Of a DNA stretch of 64,000 bases, positions 17,490 through 63,827 are shown one piece after another; the first letter of the stretch is position 1; the number at the start of each line of letters is the position of its first letter. The stretch comes from Bacilli bacterium (GTDB lineage: Bacteria > Bacillota_I > Bacilli_A > RF39 > UBA660). The DNA lies in assembly GCA_017934595.1 (NCBI GenBank), contig JAGBJG010000008.1, forward strand, positions 65,687 to 129,686, given 5' to 3'. The position numbers were made by a program, and so were the translations under genes. A model generated the notes under the pieces. That model was not told the DNA's origin and did not search any database. It saw only the letters and a list, made by a program, of their open reading frames with translations.

Positions 17490-19259
17490 ATGTTAGGGAA
17501 TATAATAGGGATTGAAGAGAACTTAGTATTATTAAAACTTACAGATACTAATAGTGATAATTTATCTAATATGTATGTAACACTAGAAAATAGTGAAAAT
17601 ATATGTGTAGGTGAAATAGGTAATATAAAAGATGGTATTGCTTATATCAATTTATTAGGTGAAATTATTGATAGTAAATTTGTATTTGGTGTCATTAGAA
17701 AGCCATTAATGAATTCAAATGTTAGATTGATACCAACTGAAAAGGTACCTGCTATTATTTCATGCGATAATTCTGATGAATCTAAATATTTATATTTAGG
17801 TAAAAGTCCAATATATAAAGATGTAGATATTAATATACCAATTAACAAATTCTTTAGTAATCACTTTGCTATATTTGGATCAACTGGATCTGGTAAATCA
17901 TGTTCAGTATCAAGAATATTTCAAAATTTATATAGCAAGAGAAATGCGATTCCATATAAATCAACTATATTAATATTTGATGCATATGGTGAGTATCATC
18001 AAGCATTTTCTAAATTAAGTGAAGTTGCTCCAGAAATATCTTTTAAATCTTATACCACTAATACTAAATTTAGTGATACAGATATTATTAAAATACCTTT
18101 ATGGTTACTTGGAGTAGATGATTTAGCTTTATTATTAGGAGTTGAATCACATAACCAAATTCCAATTGTAGAAAAAGCTTTAAAGATAGTATCTATCTTT
18201 GGTAGAGAAGAATCTGAAGTTATTAAAAGTAAAAATGATATCATTGCCAGAGCTATTTTAGATATCTTAACTAGTGGTAGATCTGCATCTCAAATAAGAG
18301 ATCAAGTTGTATCAGTTTTATCTTACTATAACACAAAAGAATTAAATCTTGAAACACAAATATTCCAACCAGGTTATACAAGAACATTAAAACAATGTTT
18401 ACTTATTGATGCTAATGGCAAGATAAGAGAAATGGAATTATTAATGAATTTCATGAACTCTTTCTTAGATGATTCATTAGAATTAAATTTACCTGATGGA
18501 ACATTTGCTTATACATTAAAAGATTTATGTGATGCGATGGATTTTGCATTAATATCTGAAGGTGTATTAAAGAGTGATAAAATATTTGATGAATCTAATA
18601 TTTTAAAAGTAAGATTACATTCACTACTTAATAGTAATGAAGCAAGATATTTTGACGTTCCTGATTATATAACAAGAGATCAATATATCAGAAATTTACT
18701 TACAGCTACTAATGGTAGAAAAGCTCAAATAATTAACTTTAATATTAACTATGTTGATGATAGATTAGCTAAGACTATAACAAAGATATATTCAAAAATG
18801 TTCTTTGATTATGCTAAACAAATGGATGATAGAGGTTCCTTACCTTTCCATATTGTCTTAGAAGAAGCACATAGATATGTTCAAAATGATAATGATAATT
18901 TCTTATTAGGTTACAATATCTTTGAACGTATTACAAAAGAGGGTAGAAAGTATGGAGTTTTATTAGGATTAATATCTCAAAGACCTTCTGAACTTTCTGA
19001 AACTGCTTTATCTCAATGTAATAACTTCTTAATATTTAAGATGATTCATCCAAATGATATTGGATATATTAGAGAAATGGTTCCAAATATTACTGATGAA
19101 ATAGTTAAGAAAATTAAAATCTTACAACCAGGTACATGTATGGCATTTGGTCTTGCATTTAAAGTTCCGACAATTATTAAATTTGAAATGCCAAATCCAT
19201 CACCTGCGTCTAACTCAGCTAATATAGAAGAAAAATGGTTTATTAAAAAGAATGCGTGA
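17490..19259 (+). CDS. HerA-like P-loop ATPase, second paralog
   Basis: GSTGSGKS, LEEAHRYVQNDND, ISQRPSELSE motifs. The C-terminal ~150 aa are highly similar to 5426-7183. Confidence 0.65.
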   Translation: MLGNIIGIEENLVLLKLTDTNSDNLSNMYVTLENSENICVGEIGNIKDGIAYINLLGEIIDSKFVFGVIRKPLMNSNVRLIPTEKVPAIISCDNSDESKYLYLGKSPIYKDVDINIPINKFFSNHFAIFGSTGSGKSCSVSRIFQNLYSKRNAIPYKSTILIFDAYGEYHQAFSKLSEVAPEISFKSYTTNTKFSDTDIIKIPLWLLGVDDLALLLGVESHNQIPIVEKALKIVSIFGREESEVIKSKNDIIARAILDILTSGRSASQIRDQVVSVLSYYNTKELNLETQIFQPGYTRTLKQCLLIDANGKIREMELLMNFMNSFLDDSLELNLPDGTFAYTLKDLCDAMDFALISEGVLKSDKIFDESNILKVRLHSLLNSNEARYFDVPDYITRDQYIRNLLTATNGRKAQIINFNINYVDDRLAKTITKIYSKMFFDYAKQMDDRGSLPFHIVLEEAHRYVQNDNDNFLLGYNIFERITKEGRKYGVLLGLISQRPSELSETALSQCNNFLIFKMIHPNDIGYIREMVPNITDEIVKKIKILQPGTCMAFGLAFKVPTIIKFEMPNPSPASNSANIEEKWFIKKNA

Positions 19260-19273
19260 GTAGCATTCTTTCT

Positions 19274-19301
19274 TGCATTAATATAAATTTTAATATATAA
19301 T
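19274..19301 (+). promoter_or_regulatory. promoter TTGCAT, 16-nt spacer, TATAAT driving the antitoxin-like sRNA
   Basis: -35 at 19274-19279; -10 at 19296-19301. Confidence 0.45.
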
Positions 19302-19307
19302 GTATAT

Positions 19308-19422
19308 AGATGAGGGAAACTTCATAAAATAAAAAAGGAGTTACTTAACTTCGCGTGTTAGGTTACTACCTTAGTTAGGTTTTGCCTAGCCGTTTATGTT
19401 AAATGGTTAGGCGCTTTTTATT
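19308..19422 (+). ncRNA. candidate ~115-nt sRNA (type I antitoxin-like), copy 1
   Basis: Own promoter; 5' hairpin GAGG-GAAA-CUUC; AAAAAGGAG with no start codon after it; terminator GCCUAGCC...GGUUAGGC plus U-tract at 19384-19422. 5' motif shared with 43928-44034. Confidence 0.45.
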
Positions 19423-19490
19423 ATTGTTAATAAATATATTATTAATAATAATATGATAACTAATTTTAGAAATTTATTATCTTTCTTCAT
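19407..19490 (-). CDS. 27-aa hydrophobic peptide MKKDNKFLKLVIILLLIIYLLTIIKSA (type I toxin-like)
   Basis: Strong RBS AAGGAGG 8 nt before the ATG. Single TM helix with charged ends. Its 3' end overlaps the sRNA terminator. Not in the ORF track (too short). Confidence 0.5.
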   Translation of the reverse strand: MKKDNKFLKLVIILLLIIYLLTIIKSA

Positions 19491-19570
19491 AGTATCAACC
19501 TCCTTTTATATATCATTGGTGATGATAAGAAAAAGAGGTAGCAACCTAACAGTCTTTCACTCCTATAGCA

Positions 19571-19599
19571 ATTGTAACACGAAACATTGTTTGTGTAAA
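19571..19599 (-). promoter_or_regulatory. promoter TTTACA, 17-nt spacer, TACAAT for the small toxin-like peptide mRNA
   Basis: Read on the minus strand. It gives a ~75-nt 5'UTR containing ACCUCUUUUU, which is complementary to the SD AAAAGGAGGU. Confidence 0.4.
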
Positions 19600-19614
19600 T
19601 GTAAAAAAGAAATG

Positions 19615-20553
19615 TTAATTCATTTCTTTTATTTTATCTCCTTGATAAATATTTCTCTTTTTCATTTCTTTATCTATATCATTTAAGACACAGAATTTCT
19701 TTACTAACCAATTAGGTTCGATTAAATCTTCTTTATTAGGATCTCCTGTAATTCTATTAATGACTATCTCAGGTCTTAAATATTCTAACTGGTTACATAC
19801 AATATCTATATATTCTTCTTTAGTTAAGATATGGAATGGATTTTCCATATACATTTTAGCTAATACTGTATCTTTAACTACACTTAACATATGTATTTTT
19901 ATACCTTGAATATCTAAGTTATTTAAATACTTTACTGTTTCAATCATCATATCTTTAGTTTCATAAGGTAAGCCATTTATGATATGTACTACAACATTGA
20001 TATTTCTTTTTCTTAAACTTATAACCATGTCATGAAATTCTTTTAAAGTATGACATCTATTGATTAAATTAGATGTACTTTCATGTATCGTTTGTAGACC
20101 TAACTCAACTGTTAAATATGTTTTTTTAGATAACTCTTCTAAATAATCTAAACATTCATCTGTTATAGCGTCAGCTCTTGTAGCTATATTTATACCAACT
20201 ACATTAGGTAAGTTTAATACAGCTTCATATTTTTCTTTTAATACTTCTACTTTAGCATAAGTATTAGTATTAGCTTGGAAATAAGCTATATATTTACTAT
20301 TAGGCCATTTTTTACTAATCATATTTTTTACTTCATTAAATTGTTTTACTAAATTATCTTTAGGATTTCCACCAAATTCACCGGAACCACCTTTGCAATA
20401 AATACATCCACCAATACCTTTAGTACCATCAATATTAGGGCAAGTAAATCCACCGTTTAATGATACTTTAAATACTTTAGAATTAAATTTATGTTTATAA
20501 AAATAATCTAGTGTATGATATCTTTTATTTGAATCACTATATAAAAAGGCCAT
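19615..20553 (-). CDS. TIGR01212-family radical SAM protein
   Basis: CPNIDGTKGIGGCIYC cysteine motif near the N-terminus; RBS GGTGAT. Confidence 0.75.
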   Translation of the reverse strand: MAFLYSDSNKRYHTLDYFYKHKFNSKVFKVSLNGGFTCPNIDGTKGIGGCIYCKGGSGEFGGNPKDNLVKQFNEVKNMISKKWPNSKYIAYFQANTNTYAKVEVLKEKYEAVLNLPNVVGINIATRADAITDECLDYLEELSKKTYLTVELGLQTIHESTSNLINRCHTLKEFHDMVISLRKRNINVVVHIINGLPYETKDMMIETVKYLNNLDIQGIKIHMLSVVKDTVLAKMYMENPFHILTKEEYIDIVCNQLEYLRPEIVINRITGDPNKEDLIEPNWLVKKFCVLNDIDKEMKKRNIYQGDKIKEMN

Positions 20554-42713: not shown

Positions 42714-43891
42714 AAAAAATATATTGGTTAATAATAAGTTTATTAATATTATTACCTATAGGTGTGGAAGCTAAAAAAGATGTATATTTATTCCATGATT
42801 ATACATGTATGCATTGTAAAGCTGAAATAGAATATTTAAATAGTGTTAAAGATGAATATGATCTAGATCTACATCTATATGAAATAGGTGATAGAACTGC
42901 TTCATATTATAATGATAATGTAGATTTATTTAAGAAAATAAGTGATAAATTAGGAATTAATAAAAGTAATAAATTTCCGTTTACTATTATTGGAGATAGA
43001 TACTATATAGGTTTTGATGATAGTACAGAAAAATCTATGGATAATTTATTAAAAGAATTTGATAATAGTATAAATGTATTTGAGAAAGTAGTTAATGATG
43101 AAGATGTTTCAGATATTAATATGAAGTATGGGGAATTTAATGAAATAAAAATATTTGGTCATACCATAAATATTAATAAGATGCCGCTTCCTATAATAGC
43201 TACAGTAATAGGTTTTATAGATGGCTTTAATCCATGTGCGATGTGGGTATTAATATTCTTAATAACAATGCTTATGAATATGAAGAACAAAAAAAGAATG
43301 TGGACTTTAGGTATAACATTCTTAGTTACTTCTGCATTTGTATATTTGCTTATTATGCTTGCGTGGTTAACTCTTATAGGTAGCTTATCAACTATTACAT
43401 GGTTTAGATTAGGAATAGCTTTAGTTGCTTTAATAGGTGGATTAGTTAACTTAAATAGCTTCAGAAAGAGTCTTAAAAAAGATGATGGTTGTGAAGTAGT
43501 AGATGAAAAAAAGAGAAAGAAAATTATAACTCGTATTAAGAAAATAGTAACTGAAAAATCATTTATATTAGCTTTAATAGGAGTTATGGCATTAGCTATA
43601 TCAGTAAATGTAATTGAACTTGCATGCTCTGCAGGACTTCCTATGGCATTTACTCAAATATTAGCGATTAATACTTTATCTACATTTGAATATATGATTA
43701 ATATATTAATATATATATTCTTCTTCTTAATCGACGATATTATCGTATTTGTAATAGCTATGTTAACATTGAATGTAACAGGTATATCTACTAAGTATAC
43801 TAAGTATTCTCATTTAGTAGGTGGTATTATAATGGTTATAATAGCAGTACTTATGGTATTTAAACCTGAATGGTTGATGTTTAATATTTAG
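42710..43891 (+). CDS. thiol-disulfide oxidoreductase: N-terminal thioredoxin-like domain (CMHC) fused to a CcdA/DsbD-like membrane domain
   Basis: Signal peptide, YTCMHCK CxxC, then about 6 TM with GFNPCAMW (DsbD/CcdA family cysteine). Confidence 0.6.
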   Translation: MKKIYWLIISLLILLPIGVEAKKDVYLFHDYTCMHCKAEIEYLNSVKDEYDLDLHLYEIGDRTASYYNDNVDLFKKISDKLGINKSNKFPFTIIGDRYYIGFDDSTEKSMDNLLKEFDNSINVFEKVVNDEDVSDINMKYGEFNEIKIFGHTININKMPLPIIATVIGFIDGFNPCAMWVLIFLITMLMNMKNKKRMWTLGITFLVTSAFVYLLIMLAWLTLIGSLSTITWFRLGIALVALIGGLVNLNSFRKSLKKDDGCEVVDEKKRKKIITRIKKIVTEKSFILALIGVMALAISVNVIELACSAGLPMAFTQILAINTLSTFEYMINILIYIFFFLIDDIIVFVIAMLTLNVTGISTKYTKYSHLVGGIIMVIIAVLMVFKPEWLMFNI

Positions 43892-43920
43892 TTGATATAT
43901 TTAATAAAATATTATATAAT
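43892..43920 (+). promoter_or_regulatory. promoter TTGATA, 17-nt spacer, TATAAT driving sRNA copy 2
   Basis: -35 at 43892-43897; -10 at 43915-43920 (perfect). Confidence 0.5.
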
Positions 43921-43927
43921 GTATTTA

Positions 43928-44034
43928 GTGAAGGAAACTTCATACAATATAAAAAGGAGATACTCGATTTCCATAGTCGGGCATCGCCATATAGGTTTGG
44001 CCTAGTCTATGCTTAGATTAGGCATTTTTCTTTT
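43928..44034 (+). ncRNA. candidate ~107-nt sRNA (type I antitoxin-like), copy 2
   Basis: 5' hairpin GAAG-GAAA-CUUC; AAAAAGGAG with no start codon after it; 10-bp terminator stem 44000-44023 plus U-tract. 5' 35 nt ~80% identical to 19311-19345. Confidence 0.45.
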
Positions 44035-44111
44035 AATAACAGAAGCAGTAAAGCAACTGATAAAAAAAGGATAATTATTATTAGAAAAGATATTTCAGTA
44101 TCCTTCTTCAT
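44013..44111 (-). CDS. 32-aa hydrophobic peptide MKKDTEISFLIIIILFLSVALLLLLLKEKCLI (type I toxin-like)
   Basis: RBS GGAGG 9 nt upstream; single TM with a Lys-rich C-tail; 3' end overlaps the sRNA terminator. It is the internal start of the longer ORF-track entry 44013..44228. Confidence 0.5.
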   Translation of the reverse strand: MKKDTEISFLIIIILFLSVALLLLLLKEKCLI

Positions 44112-44199
44112 AATTATCAGCCTCCTTCCATTATCTAAGTAGTAAAATAAGGTAATGAAGGAATTTGGCAATGCCAAACAATCTTGTATCTCCAAAATA

Positions 44200-44228
44200 A
44201 TTATATCAAAAATATGTTCGTATATCAA
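44200..44228 (-). promoter_or_regulatory. promoter TTGATA, 17-nt spacer, TATAAT for the toxin-like peptide mRNA (minus strand)
   Basis: It gives a ~80-nt 5'UTR containing UCCUUC, complementary to the SD GAAGGA. Confidence 0.4.
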
Positions 44229-44293
44229 TTATTAAATTGATATATTTTTAATTTTAAAAAATAATGATATAATACTTCTAGTCAGGTGATACT

Positions 44294-46783: not shown

Positions 46784-46818
46784 AATAAATCTGTGATATA
46801 ATTTAAATGGTGATTATA

Positions 46819-46965
46819 ATGGAAGATAAAACATGTGGCTGCAGTGAAAATTGCACATGTGGGTGTCAAGAAGGTTCTGAATGCACTTGTAATGGTGAAT
46901 GTACATGTGGATGTGAATCAGATGAATGCACTTGTGAGGATTGTAATTGCGAAGAAAATAAATAA
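46819..46965 (+). CDS. 48-aa cysteine-rich peptide (17 Cys) MEDKTCGCSENCTCGCQEGSECTCNGECTCGCESDECTCEDCNCEENK; metallothionein-like or a modified-peptide precursor
   Basis: RBS GGTGAT 8 nt upstream; followed by two terminator hairpins (46978-46998 and 47017-47048); not in the ORF track. Confidence 0.5.
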   Translation: MEDKTCGCSENCTCGCQEGSECTCNGECTCGCESDECTCEDCNCEENK

Positions 46966-47053
46966 AAGAGTAGAAATGAAGTGAACCCCAAATAGTTCAC
47001 AAAATAAAAAAAGAGGTTAGATACATATTCTAATCTCTTTTTTTATTGACAAA

Positions 47054-47097: not shown

Positions 47098-47478
47098 ATG
47101 AAAATGATAATTAGTAATAGTAGTTCAGTACCTATATATGAACAAATAAAAAAATCCATTATTGATCAAATAATGAATGATGAATTGTTAGAAGATGAAG
47201 CAATACCTTCAATAAGAACATTAGCGCAGGATATAAAAATAAGTGTAATGACAATTAAGAAAGCATATGATGAGTTAGAAGAAGAAGGATATATCATAAC
47301 AAAACAAGGTAAAGGTAGCTTTGTCGCACCTAAGAATACTAATCTCGCAAAAGAACATGCACAAAAAGAATTGGAAAAACACATTAAAGATATTGTAGAT
47401 ATATCTAATAAATATGATATTTCAAAAGAAGATATAATAGATACATTTAATATATTTTATGGGAGTGAGGAAGAATGA
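47098..47478 (+). CDS. GntR-family transcriptional regulator (YtrA subfamily-like)
   Basis: wHTH PSIRTLAQDIKISVMTIKKAYDELEEEGYI; short C-terminal domain. Confidence 0.8.
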   Translation: MKMIISNSSSVPIYEQIKKSIIDQIMNDELLEDEAIPSIRTLAQDIKISVMTIKKAYDELEEEGYIITKQGKGSFVAPKNTNLAKEHAQKELEKHIKDIVDISNKYDISKEDIIDTFNIFYGSEEE

Positions 47479-62815: not shown

Positions 62816-63559
62816 ATGGATAATAAAACACAAGAAATATATATAAATTTAGATGATTCTGGGAAGTTGACTTCAAATGAAAAAATTTCTGTCTATGGTG
62901 GTTTATTATTTTTTTCCAAAAAAGAAAAAGATAAATTTATAACACAATATAGAAGTATAATAAATGATATAAAATGTAAATATTGTCATTGTTCTGCTGA
63001 TAATTGTAGCAAGAAATGTCCGGAAATTAAAAATACAAATATCCGACCAGTTGATAAAAGACGTATAATGAATTATATAAAAAAGTATTATGTGATCGCA
63101 TTAATTATTAAAAATGATGATGTATATGAACATATAAAAAATAATAAAGCGGCAAAAGGGAGATTTACGGATTATGCTATTCGAAGATTAATAAAAGAGA
63201 CGATTATTTCGTTGGTTAAATCAAAAGGATTAAATCCAAACATGCCCGTTAAATTAATTATAAATATTGATCAACAAAGTACAAAGAGTAATGGATATTA
63301 TAATTTGCATGATGGGTTGGTTGAGGAACTAAAAATAGGATTTAATAATTTTAATTATTCTTTTCAAATAAAACCGGTTTTAAGTGGTGATTTAGAACTT
63401 GATATTTCATATCAAGATTCTGGTAAAAGCTATGTCGTTCAGGCTGCGGATTTACTAGCTGGTACAATAAGAAAAAAATCATTAGATGCACTTTTGAGTA
63501 ACCAAGATATACACAATGAATTATCAGAATTTGTTGATTTTAAAATAATTTTACCATAA
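62816..63559 (+). CDS. DUF3800-family protein
   Basis: N-terminal IYINLDDSGK and C-terminal VQAADLLAGTIRK match the DUF3800 termini. Confidence 0.55.
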   Translation: MDNKTQEIYINLDDSGKLTSNEKISVYGGLLFFSKKEKDKFITQYRSIINDIKCKYCHCSADNCSKKCPEIKNTNIRPVDKRRIMNYIKKYYVIALIIKNDDVYEHIKNNKAAKGRFTDYAIRRLIKETIISLVKSKGLNPNMPVKLIINIDQQSTKSNGYYNLHDGLVEELKIGFNNFNYSFQIKPVLSGDLELDISYQDSGKSYVVQAADLLAGTIRKKSLDALLSNQDIHNELSEFVDFKIILP

Positions 63560-63561
63560 GA

Positions 63562-63671
63562 AAAAAGGCAACTAAGTGTTGCCTTTTCCCAGTTAGGGCG
63601 ACGTACATACAGCACGCTTAATTTATTAAAATCGACACCTAACTATCGACCTGACAAGATTTCTCTCCGGT
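63562..63671 (-). ncRNA. candidate ~110-nt sRNA (minus strand) in a 270-nt gap between convergent genes
   Basis: Minus-strand promoter TTGACA (63706-63701), 17-nt spacer, TATCAT (63683-63678); relatively GC-rich body; terminator GGCAACACUUAGUUGCC plus U6 ending ~63562. Confidence 0.3.
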
Positions 63672-63827
63672 ACATCAATGATACTATAAAAAAATATTTT
63701 TGTCAATATAAGTATCATTGTATTATTATCTTATGTAATAAAAAAAGAAATATGTATTGCATTAAAATATAATCGTAAATAATAGTAAAAAATAAAAGAG
63801 GTCAACATGTTGACACTCTTGGGAGTT

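Follow-up and report, generated by a model that had tools for sequence, protein, structure and literature searches.

In the type I toxin-antitoxin families of Gram-positive bacteria, the antitoxin lies on the 3' side of the toxin gene and partly overlaps the toxin mRNA (PMC8594479). The T1TAdb database gives as key determinants of type I toxin mRNAs the pairing of the Shine-Dalgarno (SD) sequence with an anti-SD, a 5' stem-loop, a 3' terminator, and a long-distance interaction of the 5' end with the 3' end (PMC8594479). We analysed a stretch of 64,000 nucleotides (nt) from a Bacilli bacterium (GTDB lineage RF39, UBA660; GenBank assembly GCA_017934595.1, contig JAGBJG010000008.1, positions 65,687 to 129,686 of the forward strand), called the window below, and we describe here a locus at its positions 19270-19600. 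At this locus, the gene of a small RNA (sRNA) on the plus strand converges with a gene for a hydrophobic peptide of 27 amino acids (aa) on the minus strand. An original prediction, made from the letters of the sequence alone, had proposed this arrangement of an sRNA and a small membrane-peptide gene, and we found it again at about 100 further loci. The locus probably belongs to a family of chromosomal, type I toxin-antitoxin-like modules that had not been described before; in the literature on type I systems in Mollicutes, Tenericutes, and RF39, we found nothing describing it.

The new family presents the general features of type I systems, i.e., a peptide of less than 60 aa forming a hydrophobic helix; a convergent gene for a complementary non-coding RNA (the extent of the overlap is predicted); and silencing elements acting in cis. 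All four T1TAdb determinants are found or predicted in it. Among the known systems, bsrG/SR4 and txpA/RatA come nearest to it in working principle. Their antitoxins, SR4 and RatA, bring about RNase III-dependent decay, and SR4 has the further effect of tightening SD sequestration. As in the new family, the toxins of these two systems are small and single-helix, with an SD partly sequestered in cis. Both systems are also convergent, as are BsrE/SR5, YonT/SR6, and SprG/SprF, with an sRNA on the 3' side that overlaps the end of the open reading frame (ORF) (PMC8594479). The likeness to txpA/RatA and bsrG/SR4 drawn in the original prediction holds for the architecture and not for the sequence: Rfam, Pfam, and NCBIfam returned nothing above noise for peptide or RNA. 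Other traits also separate the new family from this group. Its peptides are shorter, mostly 24-34 aa; it does not sit on prophage-like elements, as far as visible; its sRNA is far more conserved than its toxin; its toxin leader holds a same-sense copy of an sRNA helix; and blocking the 3' untranslated region (3'UTR) of its toxin mRNA leaves the predicted state of the SD almost unaltered.

The par locus of pAD1 (Fst/RNAII) and SprA1/SprA1as are likewise convergent, with a shared terminator-proximal sequence, and they too have a toxin mRNA with a 5' stem-loop, an upstream helix hiding the SD, and repeats common to both RNAs. In par, direct DNA repeats make the two RNAs complementary at their 5' ends, and the interaction takes place outside the overlap (PMC8594479). 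On the contrary, the repeats of the new family are inverted in the DNA, so that both RNAs carry the same sequence, and the family has no Fst-family match in Pfam, no match in Rfam, and no 5'-domain pairing beyond chance. Indeed, the duplex between the sRNA 5' domain and the toxin start region reaches -6.8 kcal/mol against -5.2 kcal/mol in shuffles, with scattered predicted sites, and we rejected trans pairing in the manner of par and SprA1 since it does no better than these shuffles. For the new family, a 5'-3' pairing of the toxin mRNA is predicted that would give a compact inert form next to an SD/anti-SD pairing and would recall hok/Sok and AapA1/IsoA1; the concept is that of a long-distance fold-back of the full-length toxin mRNA (PMC8594479). 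The antitoxins of these two systems, however, overlap the 5' part of the mRNA, in Gram-negative hosts, whereas the antitoxin of the new family would overlap the 3' part and compete directly with the 5' end. Here, the 5'-3' interaction is strong and locus-specific in prediction, and it depends on the predicted mRNA 3' end; an inverted repeat with a role in the DNA is a possible, if improbable, alternative. The type I toxins of C. difficile are about 50 aa long. According to two reports, the C. difficile modules (e.g., CD2517.1/RCd8) also belong to a low-GC gut Firmicute and combine convergent antisense sRNAs, small hydrophobic toxins, and paralogs; they are set apart by this description, as they adjoin CRISPR arrays or sit in prophages, neither of which was seen in the new family (PMC5961336, PMC7699646).

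On the plus strand, the sRNA promoter (19273..19301) is read as a -35 box TTGCAT (19273-19278) and a -10 box TATAAT (19296-19301). Both boxes had been predicted; the spacer proves to be 17 nt and not 16. A simple promoter scan missed this promoter because TTGCAT agrees with TTGACA at 3/6 positions only. The scan found 6 promoter-like sites in the locus region against 11.3 expected, and the GC content of the window, 26.6%, means that lone promoter-like hexamers weigh little. The candidate antitoxin sRNA, of about 115 nt between its predicted ends (19308..19422, plus strand), folds into three hairpins (z = -4.2) and matches the family covariance model R1, built on 105 distinct copies, with 73.9 bits (E = 1.2e-9). 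It begins with a 5' hairpin with a GNRA loop, H1 (AUGAGG-GAAA-CUUCAU; 19310..19325), identified from the fold and the family consensus. An A-rich linker with GGAG follows (19326..19340), whose complement would supply the U-tract and the foot of the stem in the predicted toxin mRNA terminator. Then come the H2 helix, AGGAGU-UACUUAAC...GUUAGGU-ACU-CCU (19336..19371), supported by the fold and by compensatory changes, and an intrinsic terminator (19383..19419) with a 14-pair stem (19383-19413) and a T-run (19415-19419). The terminator scan found 2 terminator-like sites in the locus 1 region against 0.1 expected. All the parts of the ~115-nt RNA that had been proposed, from the 5' GNRA hairpin to the terminator, are thus present, in a gap where the source scaffold has no gene call. 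The SD-like sequence AAAAAAGGAG (19331-19340, plus strand) also lies within the sRNA, and no start codon follows it at a usable spacing, the nearest being a GTG 16 nt downstream with a 7-codon frame. We rejected AAAAAGGAG as the SD of a hidden ORF, since neither of the two copies in the window has a suitably spaced start codon; in relatives, an ATG is present after AAAAAGGAG, but its frame has just 3 codons (L003).

On the minus strand, the predicted toxin promoter TTTACA-17-TACAAT is present with a TG upstream (19599..19571; scan score 10/12). From the fold and the family comparison, it would give a 5' untranslated region (5'UTR) of about 74 nt (19491..19564; predicted transcription start). 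The 27-aa hydrophobic ORF, MKKDNKFLKLVIILLLIIYLLTIIKSA, translates from the ATG at 19490 (19490..19407, with the stop), and its stop codon (19409..19407) falls within the 3' arm of the sRNA terminator, as had been claimed. Its SD, AAAAGGAGGU (19507..19498), places GGAGG 9 nt 5' of the ATG. The anti-SD ACCUCUUUUU (19539..19530) pairs with this SD in both the minimum-energy and the centroid folds (z = -2.3), which bears out the complementarity noted from the sequence. Moreover, the leader contains the motif UGUUAGGUUGCUACCUC (19535..19551), a same-sense copy of the H2 3' arm of the sRNA, UGUUAGGUUACUACCU (19356-19371), and this motif is therefore complementary to the 3' end that we predict for the toxin mRNA. 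At that end, the antisense H2 hairpin followed by UUUUUUAUUUU (19326..19372, minus strand) would act as the intrinsic terminator of the toxin mRNA.

The window itself holds a paralog. A blastn comparison of locus 1 with the window revealed a second copy at 43910-44127 (69% identity, E = 2.5e-13), and the parts and their order in this locus 2 (43890-44230) equal those of locus 1, including the 5' hairpin and the AAAAAGGAG box. Its sRNA promoter is TTGATA-17-TATAAT (43892-43920, plus strand), and its sRNA of about 108 nt (43927-44034, plus strand; H1 at 43928-43943, terminator at 44000-44023) scores 63.1 bits with R1, which is significant in the window at exactly these two loci. The toxin promoter, TTGATA-17-TATAAT with TG (44228..44200, minus strand), precedes an 82-nt leader and a 32-aa ORF, MKKDTEISFLIIIILFLSVALLLLLLKEKCLI (44111..44013, minus strand), whose 3' end overlaps the sRNA terminator. 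The middle hairpin is kept as a hairpin in both copies despite its differing sequence. The window has two matches to the pattern GGAAACTTCAT-N(6-10)-AAAAGGAG, searched as GGAAACTTCATN{6,10}AAAAGGAG, where 0.00 are expected.

Scanning a genome collection with the pattern gave 51 stretches, of which about 20 copies on 17 loci are genuine, sharing the promoter, hairpin, and downstream structure, the rest being chance matches in coding DNA. All the genuine copies are hosted by low-GC assemblies or metagenome-assembled genomes (MAGs), i.e., uncultured Bacilli, "Mycoplasma sp. CAG:611", and a Tenericutes MAG. A slightly altered pattern added at least 120 stretches from a metagenome collection, some of whose contig titles name the human gut metagenome. 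In total, at least 128 copies are defined by the pattern, 115 of them distinct. A profile hidden Markov model made from the alignment (nhmmer) brought 23 extra copies without the pattern, for at least 153 matches on 122 contigs, and the hosts overall are low-GC gut and rumen bacteria. Three pattern matches on viral contigs proved not to be family members, and blastn gave no match either, so that an origin from a plasmid or phage was rejected. The module represents an abundant and wholly unannotated family in uncultured, genome-reduced, low-GC bacteria of the gut and rumen, discovered via RNA features and not through peptide homology, and its loci explain otherwise empty intergenic regions in many MAGs. 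For further work, it offers an sRNA model backed by covariation, some 100 peptide sequences of several classes, and testable predictions of the transcript ends and of 5'-3' pairing versus pairing with the antitoxin.

The family comparison shows how the sRNA relates to its surroundings. The original prediction had named the possibility that the plus-strand RNA is part of the 3'UTR of the upstream HerA-like gene. Of 127 copies, 124 have a -10 box where one would be expected (TG-extended in 99, and with TTG at -35 in 96), and the upstream genes vary among the loci; a promoter at a fixed distance behind varying upstream DNA excludes that the sRNA is this gene's 3'UTR. The consensus sRNA has three helices. 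In the 105-sequence alignment, standard pairs occupy 95.6% of the cells, against 87.1% in shuffles and 26-43% with slid partners, and compensatory cells number 221 against 58 in shuffles, with double changes at 6 of the 7 consensus H2 pairs and at 9/9 terminator pairs. The G-U pairs fit only a plus-strand transcript (e.g., U-G at one H2 pair in 45 sequences). H1 is invariant in the 105-copy set, but it belonged to the search pattern; in the pattern-free copies, its stem is preserved through changes (e.g., GAAA-GAAA-UUUC), and two copies lack H1. At the gathering score, no Rfam 15 family matches the sRNA of the window locus or of 13 other loci, and nothing relevant appears at E <= 10 over 19100-19750. 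These in silico comparisons support the view that the sRNA is an independent structured transcript unit.

The convergent ORF is equally constant in its position. A flank of 300 nt or more is available for 108 copies. In 99 of them, the minus strand has a hydrophobic ORF, mostly of 24-34 aa, whose stop lies about 95-110 nt past the hairpin loop, i.e., at the sRNA 3' end; around 90 of these 99 ORFs come with both an SD and a start codon. When the sRNA strand was searched in this way, the 108 loci gave only 3 spurious ORFs. The peptides fall into at least six classes (e.g., MxKKDFLIxSLxIIIxLLLxLLFIVLI, MKTKTFIINVLRYISIILFIITFLIIIIKK, and MKNNNSFNKDVISLFKMISITLILIALIFLFKI), all charged at the N-terminus and with a single hydrophobic helix, many having charged C-terminal residues as well. 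Column entropy is 0.88, 0.46, and 1.09 at the three codon positions, T occupies 75% of the second positions, and 56% of the single-base codon differences are synonymous against 23% expected. These sequence statistics support an ORF conserved in position and under coding (purifying) selection. A comparison with type I toxin families, proposed at the outset, yielded no relatives: eight representative peptides matched no Pfam family at E <= 10, including Fst_toxin, and NCBIfam gave noise only (a HokA match at E = 0.12 with 12.4 bits, where the cut-off is 89). Ten peptides looked up in a collection of 15 billion proteins were all absent from it. In L003, L013, and L050, from Mycoplasma sp. CAG:611 and Tenericutes UMGS1485, an apparent ATG (MKKRFDKV...) has no SD and is absent from L050; the true start is probably the downstream GTG after AAAAAGG, which gives a peptide, MKTKTFII..., that aligns with its relatives.

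In most of the family loci, the toxin promoter lies about 55-80 nt from the start codon, and the 5'UTR is mostly 55-62 nt long, against 74 and 82 nt in the window copies. The leader consists of two parts, a 5'-terminal module that we call H2' and then the anti-SD/SD hairpin. The H2' module, e.g., (A/U)GGAACAUUUAAUAAGUUGGGUGGAGCC, is a shortened same-sense copy of the sRNA H2 and therefore creates, in the DNA, an inverted repeat on both sides of the ORF. The longest words shared link leader positions -56..-64 with sRNA 29-36, and -39..-53 with sRNA 52-59. The copy tracks its locus, being GUUGCUACC/GUUACUACC in locus 1, GGCAUUGCC/GGCAUCGCC in locus 2, and GUGUCUACC/AUGUCUACC elsewhere. The anti-SD/SD hairpin starts at the ...ACC or ...GCC end of this module, and its arms vary by class (GCCAAACUUC/GAAGGGAGGC, ACCUUCAUCAU/AUGAUUGGAGGU, GCCUUUCUUU/AAAGGAAGGAGGC). 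In 52 of 70 loci, the SD core is paired with sequence upstream of it. The probability that the SD is unpaired is 0.18, and it rises to 0.38 with a shuffled upstream leader. This modelling supports that SD sequestration is conserved across subfamilies with different arm sequences.

After the antisense H2, the minus strand carries 6-8 U in 10 nt in all of the 105 aligned copies, because the sRNA linker is AUAAAAUAAAAAAGGA. After the antisense of the sRNA terminator, the mean is 2.2 U in 10 nt, and we rejected on this basis a bidirectional terminator that would end the toxin mRNA too. The antisense H2 with its U-tract is the sole terminator-like signal for the toxin transcript, which leads to a predicted overlap of about 95 nt; we infer that it runs from about nt 20 of the sRNA to its 3' end. 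The transcripts are thus convergent, with the toxin stop within the sRNA terminator, as had been proposed, and their predicted overlap exceeds the terminators alone. As for the internal SD-like box, present and without a usable start codon, its reading as an orphan SD is given up: the conserved A-rich linker with GGA(G), i.e., the AAAAAGGAG box, is best read as the complement of the intrinsic terminator predicted for the toxin mRNA.

With this 3' end assumed, the first 35 nt and the last 60 nt form about 25 base pairs (bp) in 70/70 modelled toxin mRNAs. The 5' × 3' duplexes average -33.5 kcal/mol for cognate pairs, -21.4 for distant non-cognate ones, and -12.3 for shuffles, and the cognate duplex is better than at least 95% of the non-cognates in 71% of the loci; in the window, it reaches -32.5 kcal/mol at locus 1 and -35.2 kcal/mol at locus 2. 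When the 3' region is blocked in the model to mimic sRNA binding, the free state has the more open SD in 25 loci and the less open one in 5. The effect is small, and we rejected the idea that the sRNA, by binding, strongly switches the accessibility of the SD; with the SD so little changed, the fold-back would serve to store or stabilise the mRNA and not to switch it on.

We propose the following mechanism. The minus strand would give an mRNA of about 240 nt for the 27-aa single-helix membrane peptide, with its SD held paired by the upstream anti-SD, and the plus strand would constitutively produce the ~115-nt sRNA with its three hairpins. Predicted to be perfectly complementary to about 95 nt of the toxin 3'UTR, the sRNA would pair there, as RatA and SR4 do in B. 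subtilis, marking the toxin mRNA for double-strand-specific cleavage and keeping it untranslated. If the sRNA were lost, a stable toxin mRNA would remain. The first ~30 nt of this mRNA, which carry the copy of the sRNA H2, could pair with its own 3' end and give a compact, end-protected, translationally silent form, so that the sRNA would compete with the mRNA 5' end for the mRNA 3' end. We put forward, only tentatively, the possibility that the antitoxin works partly by mimicry. The sRNA and the mRNA 5' end, which share a locus-specific helix, would then compete for the terminator region at the mRNA 3' end. In the absence of the sRNA, the mRNA would be stored in the ~25-bp fold-back; in its presence, a long perfect duplex would form and the mRNA would be destroyed, H1 and the linker serving a further function. 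If true, such mimicry would combine a hok/AapA-style fold-back with an antitoxin that overlaps the 3' part, in a lineage derived from Gram-positive bacteria, and it would join the two main regulatory designs of type I systems.

The organization of the copies recalls what is typical of type I modules. Tandem copies occur on 25 contigs, with 2-4 each, mostly head-to-tail with a period of about 330-420 nt, and arrays of 3-4 modules are found at L024:5576-6642, L115:4475-5288, L076:3305-4090, and L002:5024-6018. Some array units have lost H1 and the linker, or the toxin ORF, and copies therefore seem to arise and decay rapidly. The ORF is also broken beside an intact sRNA, by an in-frame TAA (L004), truncation (L002 copy 2, L046), a frameshift (L105), or a nonsense change (L108), and at least five loci have an orphan sRNA, with an ordinary gene opposite. 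Tandem arrays, decayed toxin genes, and orphan sRNAs are population traits typical of type I modules, and the broken ORFs beside intact sRNAs give an indirect hint that the peptide may be toxic.

On the other hand, several results weigh against the toxin-antitoxin reading or its mechanism. The peptides and RNAs have no homology to proven type I systems in Rfam, Pfam, or NCBIfam, and blastn gave no match that would link the family to a plasmid or phage. The antisense H2 hairpin, on which the predicted toxin mRNA 3' end relies, is only moderately stable (mean -7.1 kcal/mol). In the blocking model, SD accessibility hardly shifts (0.19 against 0.12), and an effect of the sRNA on translation is not supported by it. 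H1 and the linker, finally, are conserved far beyond the need of antisense pairing alone. This last point is taken up by an alternative in which the sRNA acts mainly in trans or binds a protein, with its targets elsewhere, the peptide gene being a passenger or the module dual-function. The near-invariance of H1 and the A-rich linker while the peptides diverge, the orphan sRNAs without ORF, and the position of about 10% of the copies just downstream of a same-strand tRNA gene speak for it. But the invariance is partly a product of the search pattern, and the linker is accounted for by the toxin terminator. The ORF, moreover, sits at a fixed distance in 99 of 108 copies, and the toxin leader covaries with the sRNA H2 locus by locus, tying both genes together. 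The sRNA 5' domain pairs with the toxin start no better than by chance, other targets not having been searched. We therefore hold a mainly trans-acting sRNA to be quite improbable.

It is also unlikely, in our view, that the locus encodes an antisense-controlled small membrane protein that is no toxin, with a regulatory or structural role and a level that the sRNA merely tunes. Such a protein would suit the purifying selection on the peptide, the housekeeping nature of the flanking genes, and the finding of no plasmid or phage link, and many small membrane proteins do no harm. Yet tandem multi-copy arrays, a single conserved sRNA facing at least six peptide classes that look unrelated, an ORF repeatedly broken by nonsense, frameshift, or truncation while the sRNA is retained, and tight SD sequestration are hard to fit to a dedicated cellular function; all four are typical of toxic selfish modules. 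The H2/H2' inverted repeat might instead act at the DNA level, in a mobile element or an invertible toxin cassette, the RNA readings being secondary. Imperfect inverted repeats of 13-35 bp do flank a cassette of about 200 bp and covary by locus, and copies stand in arrays and beside tRNA genes. However, the opposite orientation of the cassette was found in 0 of 108 loci, on which ground we rejected an invertible cassette. No recombinase gene is adjacent in the window, the repeats are imperfect, and both of their copies form RNA hairpins whose G-U pairs match the transcribed strands, which leaves an action at the DNA level highly improbable. As for chance features of AT-rich intergenic DNA, or a plus-strand RNA that is only the 3'UTR and terminator of the HerA-like gene, the low GC content does make promoter-like hexamers common. 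The paralog and more than 150 homologous copies behind unrelated genes, with the promoter at a fixed distance, the covarying structure, and the coding selection on the ORF stand against it, and on these sequence comparisons we regard this explanation as already refuted, its probability being close to nil.

Two observations concern the genomic setting of the family. For 15 of the 153 sRNA copies, a tRNA gene (Glu, Arg, Ser, Lys) lies 12-110 nt upstream, always on the same strand; these copies include L169:223-335, L062, L104, L059, L147, and L127. In L169, the gap between the tRNA 3' end and the sRNA is only 12 nt, which makes co-transcription possible. The module is also present on five contigs of MAGs labelled "uncultured Muribaculaceae", namely L008, L029, L039, L051 (SRP287540_co1_194), and L048 (from the sister MAG SRP287540_co1_203). 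Their GC content of 27-30% is odd for Muribaculaceae, and the label or the binning of these MAGs is therefore probably wrong.

In the window, the genes flanking the two loci are housekeeping genes, for a YqeH-like GTPase, a DUF87/HerA-type ATPase, a radical SAM enzyme, and a PP-loop ATPase. The DUF87/HerA-type ATPase (589 aa, 17490-19259, plus strand; Pfam E = 7.5e-26) is the one encoded upstream of locus 1, and a Pfam scan of its neighbours showed no NurA-like or other defence partner. A third copy was considered at 46977-47046, where R1 matches weakly (E = 0.14), and rejected: the match is merely the terminator of a Cys-rich ORF of 52 aa, MVIIMEDKTCGCSENCTCGCQEGSECTCNGECTCGCESDECTCEDCNCEENK (46807-46965, plus strand), metallothionein-like in appearance. 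This terminator is followed by an ORF of 126 aa at 47098-47478. Farther along the window, a DUF3800-I RNA (Rfam RF02969) is found at 63553-63678 on the minus strand, with 60.9 bits against a gathering score of 44.2.

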